Positions 13,441 through 16,487 of a stretch of DNA of 40,156 nucleotides are shown one piece after another. Positions within the stretch are counted from its first letter, which is position 1, and the number at the start of each line of letters is the position of its first letter. The stretch is from sequence record ON528733. One strand, given 5' to 3'. The position numbers and the translations under genes are program-made. This DNA is from Shigella phage ESh23. The notes under the pieces were generated by a model. That model had not been told where the DNA came from and searched no databases. It saw nothing but the letters and a program-made list of their open reading frames with translations.

Positions 13441-13470
13441 TTGACAAGATGTGCCGACTTAAAGTAGTAT
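13441..13470 (+). promoter_or_regulatory. host sigma70-type early promoter (T7 A3-like): TTGACA-18 nt-TAGTAT
   Basis: AAGGTGAAACAAACGCTTGACAAGATG...TAGTATGTACCACATCAACACGAC parallels the T7 A3 region (AAGGTGAAACAAAACGGTTGACAACATG...TACGATGTACCACATGAAACGAC). Confidence 0.55.
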
Positions 13471-13679: not shown

Positions 13680-14186
13680 ATGGAACGTAACACTAACGCA
13701 TACTATGACCTGCTGGCTGCAACCGTTGAGCTGTTCAACGAGCGTATTCAGCAAGACGAAATAGCTGAAGGTGATGACTACAGCGATGCGCTGCATGAAG
13801 TCGTAGACGGTCAGGTTCCGCACTATTACAGCGAGATTTTCACGGTGATGGCTGCTGATGGTATTGACCACGAGTTCGAAGACTCTGGGCTGATGCCTGA
13901 TACCAAGGACGTAACGCGTATACTGCAAGCTCGCATCTATGAGGCACTGTATAACGATGTGTACAATAGCTCGGATGTAGTCTGGTTCGAGGCTGAAGAG
14001 AGCGACGAGGAGGACGAATACTGGGTGGTTGACGCTAAGACAGGTGCATTCATTGAGCAAGCTGTATCACTTGAGGTCGCTACTGCATGTGCCAAGGACC
14101 ACTATGCGATAGGTCGCCGCCTGAAAGTCGAAGACATCAACGACAACGTAGTGTTCGACCCTGCGGCTGCTGAGGACTGCGAGTGA
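13680..14186 (+). CDS. ocr: Ocr (T7 gp0.3-like anti-restriction DNA mimic) with ~50 aa C-terminal extension, 168 aa
   Basis: Core VPHYYSEIFTVMAADGIDHEFEDSGLMPDTKDVTRILQARIYE is near-identical to recalled T7 Ocr; acidic; first gene after the early promoters. Confidence 0.9.
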   Translation: MERNTNAYYDLLAATVELFNERIQQDEIAEGDDYSDALHEVVDGQVPHYYSEIFTVMAADGIDHEFEDSGLMPDTKDVTRILQARIYEALYNDVYNSSDVVWFEAEESDEEDEYWVVDAKTGAFIEQAVSLEVATACAKDHYAIGRRLKVEDINDNVVFDPAAAEDCE

Positions 14187-14335
14187 TGGTAACTTATGGT
14201 CTCTGCCAGCACCACATGGAGAACGCCCGGCTATCTCTGGCGACTCTGAAACACGACGCTATTATGCGTCACCTGAAAGCGGTCTACGAGGGCCGCAAGC
14301 GTATACACGACAGCTTACACTCTGAGGGCAAGTGA
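14186..14335 (+). CDS. small early ORF, 49 aa (T7 0.4-0.6 position)
   Basis: ATG overlaps Ocr stop (TGATG); weak SD; below the ORF-track length cutoff. Confidence 0.35.
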   Translation: MVTYGLCQHHMENARLSLATLKHDAIMRHLKAVYEGRKRIHDSLHSEGK

Positions 14336-14337
14336 AC

Positions 14338-14463
14338 ATGTACCAGATAGCTTATAGCAGTGAACAGGCCTTCTACGATGGTCTCGTTGAGCTGATGAAG
14401 CGCGGGGCCTGCTACACGGCTAACCACCATGCGCTAACCATAACGCTGACAGGCGGGTACTGA
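14338..14463 (+). CDS. small early ORF, 41 aa
   Basis: ATG 2 nt after the previous stop; weak SD. Confidence 0.3.
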   Translation: MYQIAYSSEQAFYDGLVELMKRGACYTANHHALTITLTGGY

Positions 14464-14464
14464 G

Positions 14465-14510
14465 TGTTAAACTACAGGTCATCTACATGGTGGCCTGAGT
14501 GATTACCACT
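14465..14510 (+). promoter_or_regulatory. conserved early-region element (ACTACAGGTCATC..CATGGTGGCCTGA.TGATT..CACTT), likely RNase III site
   Basis: Near-identical copy at 14905..14950, each directly upstream of an early gene RBS. Confidence 0.3.
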
Positions 14511-14534
14511 TGACAAATATAGAAGGAAAGAATA

Positions 14535-14882
14535 ATGACTGCTAAAACTCGCAATGTATTCTCGTTAGCATTTAAACTCAACGTTGTTGAATACTACACC
14601 TCTCTACCTGAGGGCGTTATGGATAGGGTGACGGAAACAGCCCAAAAGTTCGGGGTGGGGACGAGCTCGGTGAAGCGCTGGTTTACTCAGTATAGCCGTG
14701 GTGAGCTTGCCATGGAAAACGCTATTGCGGTAAGTCGCAGTCCATCTAAGGTAATAACAGGGGACACATACCACCTTGCTGGTAAGGACTTTAAGTCCAA
14801 AGAAGAGGCGATACGCTATGCAGTCGAGCTGGCTGGGGGTCTTACTGTAACCAAGATGACAACCATCTCGGTGGAGGTGTAG
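14535..14882 (+). CDS. small HTH DNA-binding protein with a transposase (IS3 OrfA-type) helix-turn-helix signature, 115 aa
   Basis: FSLAFKLNVVEYY...AQKFGVGTSSVKRWFTQY fits the FxxEFKxxxV...GVSxxxLxxWxKxY pattern of IS3-family HTH domains; good RBS AAGGAAAG. Confidence 0.75.
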   Translation: MTAKTRNVFSLAFKLNVVEYYTSLPEGVMDRVTETAQKFGVGTSSVKRWFTQYSRGELAMENAIAVSRSPSKVITGDTYHLAGKDFKSKEEAIRYAVELAGGLTVTKMTTISVEV

Positions 14883-15716: not shown

Positions 15717-15754
15717 GAGGCCACTACATCTAGTGGTCTCAAAGATTATTTCTC
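15717..15754 (+). terminator. stem-loop (10 bp stem GAGGCCACTA/TAGTGGTCTC, loop CATC) followed by AAAGATTATTTCTC; possible weak terminator or processing site
   Basis: Read directly; U-tract is not contiguous with the stem. Confidence 0.3.
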
Positions 15755-15774
15755 ACAACATATAGAGGTGAACT

Positions 15775-15864
15775 ATGAACATCGGGTACTGGGTGTGCTT
15801 ATCTCCGGTCATCTTTCTGATAGCTTGGGGTCTTCTGGATGCAATCAAGCGAGGGTCTCTGTAA
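15775..15864 (+). CDS. 29-aa hydrophobic peptide (MNIGYWVCLSPVIFLIAWGLLDAIKRGSL)
   Basis: GAGGTG SD 7 nt upstream; stop overlaps next start (TAATG). Confidence 0.35.
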   Translation: MNIGYWVCLSPVIFLIAWGLLDAIKRGSL

Positions 15865-16058
15865 TGGGCTGGATACTTCTGGTCATCGGCTACGGGCTAA
15901 TACTCGCAGTCATCACGAAAGACATCATCAAGGCACGTAAAGTCTACCGCTTCCAGTATGTATCACTGGGGCGCTGGACTGTAAGACAACCGAACGGACG
16001 CTTTCTGCGCAACCTCGCAAACGTCTGGGATATAGCAACCTTAGGGAGTAAACTGTAA
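15864..16058 (+). CDS. small membrane protein, 65 aa (N-terminal TM helix, basic C-terminus)
   Basis: ATG-initiated version of track ORF 15768..16058; translationally coupled on both sides. Confidence 0.5.
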   Translation: MGWILLVIGYGLILAVITKDIIKARKVYRFQYVSLGRWTVRQPNGRFLRNLANVWDIATLGSKL

Positions 16059-16384
16059 TGAATAAGTCATACGGGATTAATCTGGTTCATGCTCTGGACG
16101 CAGACCTTAACCTGCTTTCAGCACTGGCTACAGGATACCGTCACAGGACCTCAAGTCACACCATTCGTCAACAGCAGGAGCGCGACCGGGTGCTGCAAGC
16201 AAGACTCCGGGCCGAGGGCCATAAGTCCGAGCTGATGTGTCTGGCGTATGGTGGACGACCTCGCACGGACGATGGTAAACTTCTGGTCTCAGGCTGGATG
16301 GCGATAGACCAGCGGTCAGGCATCAAGCATACATCCAAAGGCGACTTCAGCCATCTCCACGCTAACACACTGATATGCAAGTAG
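16058..16384 (+). CDS. hypothetical early protein, 108 aa
   Basis: ORF coupled to the upstream ORF (TAATGA); no motif recognised. Confidence 0.55.
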   Translation: MNKSYGINLVHALDADLNLLSALATGYRHRTSSHTIRQQQERDRVLQARLRAEGHKSELMCLAYGGRPRTDDGKLLVSGWMAIDQRSGIKHTSKGDFSHLHANTLICK

Positions 16385-16391
16385 TTTGGAC

Positions 16392-16410
16392 TAAACTATC
16401 ACTAAAGGAC
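16392..16410 (+). promoter_or_regulatory. variant phage-type promoter upstream of the RNAP gene: TAAACTATCACTAAAGGAC
   Basis: Matches the consensus except A for T at -2 (T3-like CACTAAAGG). Confidence 0.45.
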
Positions 16411-16487
16411 TCAAGGTCGAAAGACTCTAAGTCAGGACTGAAGTGAAAGACTTTAGTGATAAGACAACAGTTATAAGGACTTTAAGT

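Follow-up and report, generated by a model that had tools for sequence, protein, structure and literature searches.

Three short open reading frames (ORFs A, B and C), which follow each other on one strand between a protein kinase gene and gene 1 (T7-type RNA polymerase), were analysed in Shigella phage ESh23 (sequence record ON528733; the whole stretch of 40,156 nucleotides is referred to below as the window). The window is assigned from its sequence to a Kayfunavirus (K1F-like Studiervirinae, T7 family), and we hold it as almost certain that A, B and C are real early genes that were already known. B and C are already catalogued as PHROG families without an assigned function, in hundreds of K1F-like phages. 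The best explanation overall, to which we would give about an even chance, is a modular block of three early genes, of which A and B would encode membrane proteins, with a role in host takeover.

The three ORFs are chained by overlapping stop and start codons, as stated in a preliminary description of this DNA and confirmed here from the sequence and the ORF list. The A/B junction reads cTGTAATGg, in which the TAA of A and the ATG of B overlap by one base (TAATG), and the B/C junction reads cTGTAATGAat, with the same one-base overlap between the TAA of B and the ATG of C (TAATGA). The Shine-Dalgarno sites and the junctions are conserved among relatives. Kyte-Doolittle maxima (15-residue window) of 2.40 for A, 2.71 for B and 1.19 for C are indicative of one transmembrane (TM) segment each in A and B and of a soluble C, in agreement with the earlier reading of A as hydrophobic, B as single-TM and C as soluble. 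The isoelectric points are 7.95, 11.04 and 9.75, respectively, and C is hydrophilic and basic. The length of 65 amino acids (aa) given previously for B included the stop codon; the protein has 64. The earlier remark that none of the three has a recognisable motif holds for Pfam, NCBIfam and PADLOC and does not hold for PHROG, in which B and C match function-unassigned families. The absence of genes between 0.7 and 1 in T7, also noted then, was verified on T7, and the proposed check of conservation and synteny found the ORFs conserved and in the same order in Kayfunavirus genomes.

For the comparative analysis, the cassette proteins were mapped onto each of 22 IMG/VR loci and several GenBank loci. 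Ratios of non-synonymous to synonymous differences (pN/pS) were obtained from Nei-Gojobori counts pooled over all distinct pairs among 16-26 distinct relatives. In the annotated frame they were 0.26 for A (1.4 off-frame), 0.21 for the C-terminal 45 codons of B (its predicted cytoplasmic domain) and 0.55 for the B TM segment, and 0.26 and 0.25 for the core and the N-terminal module (N-module) of C. Both off-frames gave values of 1.1-3.3, except for frame +1 of the B TM segment (0.58), and in the A region they contain stop codons in 8-17 of 17 sequences. The variable sites of A fall on codon positions 1, 2 and 3 in the numbers 13, 8 and 28. In-frame purifying selection, fixed ORF length and the conserved Shine-Dalgarno sites and junctions thus indicate that A, B and C are genuine protein-coding genes. 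That they are chance open frames in the leader region, with at least A not translated, might be argued from the shortness of A, from the many GenBank records that leave it unannotated and from the alternative frames annotated in some records. However, A is always exactly 29 codons long when present, over a range of 55-100% identity, and its frame-specific pN/pS, its off-frame stop codons and its conserved Shine-Dalgarno site all speak for translation, so that we regard the chance explanation as effectively refuted by the comparative data, its probability being negligible. A longer, 96-aa reading of B that initiates at GTG (15768-16058) was excluded as coding by the frame-specific pN/pS.

Features of the window around ORFs A, B and C, and endonuclease VII genes inserted in related loci (coordinates of the inserts are those of the respective locus)
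Feature	Position	Strand	Details
ocr	13680-14186		upstream of cassette; PF08684
50-aa gene	14183-14335		early region of window
115-aa ORF	14535-14882		just upstream of kinase; weak helix-turn-helix match
Protein kinase, 244 aa	14975-15709		upstream of cassette; phrog_15752, E = 2e-113
Leader stem-loop	15703-15755	+	inner 10-bp stem 15717-15740; followed by CAAAGATTA, then Shine-Dalgarno of first cassette gene
Shine-Dalgarno of ORF A	15765-15770	+	GAGGTG
ORF A	15775-15864	+	ATG 15775, TAA 15862-15864; 29 aa
Shine-Dalgarno of ORF B	15851-15855	+	GAGGG
ORF B	15864-16058	+	ATG 15864, TAA 16056-16058; 64 aa
B TM anchor	15867-15920		aa 2-19
B cytoplasmic domain (predicted)	15921-16055		aa 20-64; very basic, near-invariant
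Shine-Dalgarno of ORF C	~10 nt ahead of C start codon	+	GGGAG
ORF C	16058-16384	+	ATG 16058, TAG 16382-16384; 108 aa
C exchangeable N-module	16058-16135		aa 1-26; motif NLVHALD
C conserved core	16136-16381		aa ~27-108
Phage-RNA polymerase promoter	16394-16409	+	AACTATCACTAAAGGA; between C and gene 1, marks 3' end of cassette
Gene 1 (T7-type RNA polymerase)	ATG 16488		downstream of cassette
Endonuclease VII insert, L003	1772-2194		inserts are 140-144 aa
Endonuclease VII insert, L006	2195-2617		
Endonuclease VII insert, L010	2195-2617		
Endonuclease VII insert, L021	2186-2608		
Endonuclease VII insert, L026	2195-2629		

Over 801 bases around the cassette, the nucleotide identity to many Kayfunavirus genomes is 92-96%. 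These have the same gene order and come from phages isolated on Salmonella, Shigella, Klebsiella, Enterobacter and Escherichia. B was found in every locus examined (shortened by deletion in L027) and so was the C core (disrupted in K1F). The Kayfunaviruses K1F, EcoDS1, CR44b and Dev2 agree with ESh23 in the gene families, their order, their position before gene 1, the TAATG junction, the leader hairpin and the phage promoter, and amino acid identities to their members are 73-97% for B and 66-94% for C. Nothing essential distinguishes ESh23 from these relatives: it has the optional A and a block made of a helix-turn-helix (HTH) gene and the kinase gene, and it is without an endonuclease VII insert. 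The kinase-less K1F, EcoDS1 and Peacock carry the same genes in the same position, behind the same leader hairpin and ahead of the gene 1 phage promoter. It is therefore the HTH and kinase block that is the variable insertion, and not the cassette, which the preliminary description had taken for a special insertion between the kinase and the RNA polymerase gene.

The product of ORF A is a 29-aa single-TM microprotein, MNIGYWVCLSPVIFLIAWGLLDAIKRGSL, with the basic tail IKRGSL, and is likely to be oriented N-out/C-in as judged from its sequence. A tblastn search detected A in 94 phage records, and many of these have no feature annotated for it. Residues G4, C8, L9, P11, V12, G19 and D22 are invariant in all relatives examined and would roughly line one face of a helix. 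No significant PHROG family was found for A (best E = 0.16), and a relationship to T7 gp0.5 (PHROG 16572) or to a 55-aa two-TM protein of K1F (PHROG 7319) was rejected at hhalign probabilities of 0.3-0.5%. Bacterial membrane microproteins of about 30 aa, such as SidA, PmrR, KdpF and AcrZ, regulate larger membrane proteins. A resembles them in its size, its single TM helix, its short basic tail, predicted to be cytoplasmic, and its conserved stripe on one face. It differs from them in being phage-encoded and is not known to be homologous to any of them. Two annotation errors touch this gene: CPT_Pisces_004 of phage Pisces (L001 1596-1859) is an N-terminally extended B of 87 aa that swallows the A region, and AS9_0003 of EcoDS1 (L048 1493-1636) is a wrong-frame ORF of 47 aa over A.

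ORF B matches phrog_2385 (E = 1.3e-26, residues 1-63 against profile positions 7-69 of 70) and corresponds to the 'gp0.6' of K1F, EcoDS1 and Dev2, the K1F gene 0.6 product being 77% identical over aa 4-64. It has the two features of this family, an N-terminal TM helix and a basic C-terminal domain with [FW]T[VT]RxPxGRFxxN. Homologues were found by tblastn in 300 phage records, among them distant ones in T7-like phages of Klebsiella, Pectobacterium and Erwinia (37-47% identity) and one in a Yersinia phage (45%); that of Klebsiella phage P2234 (L029 ~1322-1524) is unannotated. When the distant Pectobacterium and Klebsiella members (38-47% identical) are included, Y10, D20, K23, K26, T39, R41, P43, G45, R46, F47, N50 and A58 are still invariant. 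The anchor evolves faster than the tail, which hardly varies among phages of at least ten enterobacterial host genera. A search of a set of 5.8 billion proteins with the B profile gave 198 matches; among the best 120 of these, the near-full-length contigs (~40 kb) all look like T7-like phages and many others are on short metagenomic contigs. The AlphaFold2 (AF2) model of B from the family alignment had a predicted local distance difference test score (pLDDT) of 68.9, with the TM helix alone being confident. According to the positive-inside rule, the tail of B should be cytoplasmic with virtually nothing in the periplasm, which suggests that B is tethered to the membrane and binds a highly conserved target from the cytosolic side. 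An N-out/C-in topology in the inner membrane is, on the same sequence features, probable for both A and B.

ORF C matches phrog_7066 (E = 5.7e-42 over aa 25-108) and corresponds to 'gp0.38' of EcoDS1 and '0.42' of CR44b. It was found in 212 phage records, and 142 homologues share the invariant core residues. N-terminal variation gives forms of 83, 86, 100, 108 and 130 aa around an invariant core. Among 1.84 billion representative proteins, the C profile had only 15 matches, all of them small phage-like proteins or repeat artefacts. The AF2 model from the family alignment had a pLDDT of 55.7, and a Foldseek search with it against BFVD stayed within the family, with EcoDS1 Gp0.38 and one further member as the sole matches. 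That C might be a free-standing version of the C-terminal host-shutoff domain of T7 gp0.7 was considered in view of the short, 244-aa kinase and of three colinear short motifs seen by eye, and was rejected: hhalign gave 0.3% and hmmsearch 2.6 bits, the motifs are not kept in the gp0.7 of PP81 or P2234, and C is without the invariant end motif AI..L.ID..L...L.G. The N-module of C (RIS(S)ANL[VI]HALD.H.N) recurs on a divergent C relative, P0252 (L062 987-1343), and on gp03 of Pectobacterium phage PP81 (L028 1487-1804), the remainder of which is a homologue of T7 gp0.4 (E = 2e-10) and whose gene directly follows that of the B homologue. The P0252 and PP81 modules match in 12 of 19 residues (pairwise E = 5e-5). 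It is thus a short mobile module found on two unrelated early proteins, the C family and a gp0.4 homologue, and could be a recombination linker.

The leader of the cassette consists, in order, of GAGTGATAGACGAGAGG, a stem-loop, CCTCAAAGATTA and a Shine-Dalgarno site. The stem-loop has a fold energy of -23.1 kcal/mol (z = -2.0), and in 27 of 28 loci the leader immediately precedes the cassette, regardless of whether the preceding gene is the kinase, gp0.35 or a 41-aa gene. In relatives without A, the same leader directly drives B. RNAalifold predicted 17 base pairs in the leader, interrupted by internal loops. Covariation is limited: two of the pairs show compensatory changes and several show GC/GU switches. 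No Rfam family matched the region including the leader hairpin. A diverged second copy of the hairpin is present at 14462-14511, ahead of the HTH and kinase block, which is bounded by this copy and by the leader hairpin. Both hairpins are irregular, and behind each come (G)ATTA(C/T).AC.. and a Shine-Dalgarno site. In T7, RNase III sites separate the early mRNAs. By analogy, the leader hairpins are candidate RNase III-type processing sites and module or recombination boundaries.

Phage promoter sequences were matched 11 times in the window against 0.24 expected, and the EcoDS1 record has a 'phi' promoter annotated at the position homologous to that preceding gene 1. A sigma-70-like site is located at 13441-13470, upstream of ocr, and three host promoters are annotated upstream of 0.3 in the EcoDS1 record. 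No terminator-like site was found on the + strand inside the cassette. As expected of T7-like class I genes by position, ocr, the cassette and gene 1 are co-oriented and follow one another, with a phage promoter only after C. By analogy with T7, the cassette very probably belongs to the class I (early) genes, transcribed rightward by the host RNA polymerase from promoters upstream of ocr.

The promoter at the end of the cassette has the sequence ...CACTAAAGGA. Of the 10 further copies in the window, 8 have ...CACTATAGG(A/G), and the last two have CACTTTAGGA and CACTGTAGGA, respectively. K1F and EcoDS1 have TATAGGA at the gene 1 promoter site. From its sequence, this promoter may be weakened or differently regulated for the polymerase gene. 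A further ATG-initiated ORF of 23 aa (MQVVWTKLSLKDSRSKDSKSGLK, 16375-16446) overlaps the end of C and this promoter. Several close relatives have it in identical form and K1F-type sequences are without it; most likely it is a by-product of promoter conservation.

In the locus set, A, u2, the B subtypes and the C forms are found in every combination. A is optional and its gain or loss is precise: when it is absent, B takes over its leader and Shine-Dalgarno site. In some loci a 55-aa two-TM gene (PHROG 7319) or a 45-aa gene precedes or replaces A. In 5 of the 27 loci a gene of the endonuclease VII family (PF02945) is inserted exactly at the B/C stop/start overlap. These inserts are diverged alleles, usually found alongside an 83-aa C, a pattern that resembles homing-endonuclease-like polymorphism. 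The sequence at the end of B, GGGAGyAAACTGTAATG, is near-invariant whichever gene follows, one of four C forms or the endonuclease; the coupling is thus a property of the B 3' end and of compact T7-like genomes. Two in-frame deletion fusions were also observed, an A::B product of 47 aa that keeps ~20 C-terminal residues of B (L027 1956-2099) and, in P0225, a fusion of a gp0.35-like protein with B of 66 aa that keeps ~28 and has its junction at a shared VYEGR(K/W) string.

The preliminary description had taken the coupling as a sign of co-expressed partners. In its strongest form, the proteins would be obligate partners, with B, alone or together with A, docking C at the membrane to form a single membrane-targeted machine. 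The conserved TAATG coupling, the purifying selection on the N-module (pN/pS 0.25) and the recurrence of NLVHALD on the gene directly after the B homologue in PP81, as would be expected of a shared docking peptide, are compatible with it. However, the same junction couples B to the endonuclease, C forms of 83-86 aa without the module coexist with an unchanged B, and in Klebsiella, Pectobacterium and Erwinia phages, outside Kayfunavirus, B occurs without C. P0252 carries the module yet comes after a soluble protein of 176 aa and not after B, which argues against obligatory docking, and A and B are found in about 94 and about 300 records, respectively. Since the parts assort independently and occur in every combination of A, B and C forms, the coupling is no evidence of a B-C partnership, and we find such a machine unlikely, though B may still form a physical complex with C or with A. 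What stands of the preliminary description is a set of genuine, co-oriented and translationally coupled early genes, two of them for membrane proteins; the special insertion and the coupling as evidence of partnership do not. In a looser version, B would be a generic inner-membrane dock of T7-like phages, the N-module of ~20 residues (..ANL[VI]HALD.H.N..) a portable tag recruiting whichever effector is encoded next, and A a modulator of the dock within the bilayer. This is a long shot; if true, phage host takeover would have an 'anchor + exchangeable effector' architecture that had not been recognised before.

With respect to function, the cassette would, in the role that we tentatively favour, be a positional and functional analogue, and not a homologue, of the T7 0.4/0.5/0.6 cluster. 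Like T7 0.4, 0.5 (a 47-aa hydrophobic peptide) and 0.6A, it would be a run of very small non-essential class I genes between ocr and gene 1, in which the stop codon of a hydrophobic peptide overlaps the next start codon (as ATGA between T7 0.5 and 0.6A). In other genera the B homologue sits in the T7 0.4/0.5/0.6 slot beside a gp0.4 homologue; in PP81 it is directly ahead of that gene, and in both PP81 and Klebsiella phage P2234 it precedes the kinase, in the slot of T7 0.5/0.6. In contrast, no sequence relation to T7 0.5/0.6A was detected (hhalign <1%), the PHROGs differ, T7 gp0.6A has no TM segment and the ESh23 block comes after the kinase, not before it. T7 gp0.4 inhibits FtsZ (PMC9372555) and T7 Gp0.6 targets MreB (PMC6965359). 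Gp11 of phage PhiNM1, a small early membrane protein, binds MurG and DivIC (PMC11237401), and Emp of T4-like phages (Mosigvirus) binds MreB/C/D (bioRxiv 10.64898/2026.09.14.751387). A and B resemble the latter two in being early, small and non-structural and in the mode of action proposed for them; the phages are unrelated and there is no sequence similarity, so that the likeness is one of kind only.

From the position near ocr and gp0.4-like genes and from these precedents, we favour the tentative view that the cassette encodes non-essential early host-takeover effectors of the envelope or of the cell-cycle machinery at the inner membrane. The transcript would probably be separated from the upstream cistrons at the conserved hairpin, and the ORFs would be translated as a coupled chain. 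A and B would insert N-out/C-in into the inner membrane, where the basic 45-aa domain of B would face the cytoplasm and bind a target conserved across Enterobacterales. A might work through helix-helix packing with a larger membrane protein, in the manner of other microproteins of ~30 aa, and C might act on its own in the cytoplasm.

Superinfection exclusion would place A and/or B, synthesised in the first minutes of infection, in the inner membrane as a block to genome entry by a second T7-like phage, for instance at the ejectosome channel. T4 Imm and Sp, which are small early membrane proteins, provide the model. A and B are likewise small, early and membrane-anchored, and the near-universal presence of B in the genus with an invariant target-facing domain fits a conserved phage target as well as a host target. 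However, only 1-3 residues precede the TM helices, leaving A and B without a periplasmic segment, the constrained part of B is cytoplasmic, and PHROG and Pfam-type profile searches revealed no similarity to known exclusion proteins; exclusion therefore appears unlikely. The inhibition of an anti-phage system by at least one of the proteins, such as membrane-associated abortive infection, would parallel the action of the neighbouring ocr against restriction, and we give it a similarly small chance. The cassette lies beside ocr in the anti-restriction and host-takeover early region, and a mosaic neighbourhood, in which A, u2, the kinase and the N-modules of C may be present or absent, is a usual feature of accessory loci for counter-defence. 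In contrast, B and the C core are nearly universal in the genus and not patchy, and their strong conservation in phages of many host genera contrasts with the patchy distribution of defence systems. No PADLOC or anti-defence match was obtained, which is a weak test, as the PADLOC library comprises defence and not anti-defence proteins. Finally, B might be a true homologue of T7 gp0.6 and hence an MreB inhibitor. This is suggested by the name 'gene 0.6' in K1F, EcoDS1 and Dev2, by the note 'homologues to T7 gp0.6' on PP81 gp02, by a short shared string (WTVRQPNGR versus ATVCTPDGF) and by the slot before 0.7 that B occupies in other genera. The profile-profile probability is, however, 0.6% over 9 columns, and T7 gp0.6A belongs to another family (phrog_8393) without a TM segment, which makes homology very improbable.

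Several points weigh against the host-takeover view itself. Searches of Pfam, NCBIfam, PADLOC and PDB sequences with the cassette proteins gave no match, and hhalign comparisons with T7 (B with gp0.6A, C with the gp0.7 C-terminal domain, A with gp0.5) all stayed below 1%. The AF2 models of B and C are, at the pLDDT values given above, too poor to use. The topology of A and B follows from the positive-inside rule only, and it is the position of the genes and the T7 paradigm that suggest early transcription and RNase III processing. The very basic tethered domain of B could equally bind nucleic acid or anionic lipid. In the literature, we found no experimental data on any member of the three families, no function assigned to gp0.6 or gp0.38 of K1F or EcoDS1, and no Kayfunavirus transcriptome or proteome covering A, B and C; the published K1B4 transcriptome is that of an unrelated phage.

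Some observations concern the neighbouring genes and the database records. The 50-aa gene downstream of ocr could not be established as a homologue of T7 gp0.4 (pairwise E = 0.2). The 115-aa ORF ahead of the kinase matches the Brinker DNA-binding domain (E = 7e-5, just below the Pfam cutoff) and a transposase-type HTH, and seems to move with the kinase as a single inserted block. The kinase of ESh23 (244 aa, against 359 aa in T7) covers the kinase domain of T7 gp0.7 only and is without the C-terminal domain of ~120 aa present in the T7, PP81 and P2234 kinases; many Kayfunaviruses, among them K1F, EcoDS1 and Peacock, have no kinase at all. Two records with Gram-positive host labels, OR786095.1 ('Staphylococcus phage MBBL139') and PQ520054.1 ('Enterococcus phage IME_EF3'), contain Kayfunavirus early-region sequence with 92-100% identity and are probably mislabelled or contaminated entries.

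The locus shows how a T7-like early region is assembled, with hairpin-bounded modules exchanged at conserved junctions, the precise gain or loss of a microgene and insertion of a homing-endonuclease gene at a stop/start overlap. A is a well-supported membrane microprotein that is often omitted from GenBank records or replaced by a wrong-frame ORF, which annotation pipelines could correct. B is among the most conserved small early proteins of Kayfunavirus and has relatives in T7-like phages of Klebsiella, Pectobacterium, Erwinia and Yersinia; several of these phages are in therapeutic use or have been put forward for it. An invariant, putatively cytoplasmic domain of 45 residues that is anchored in the membrane points to a target conserved among enterobacteria.

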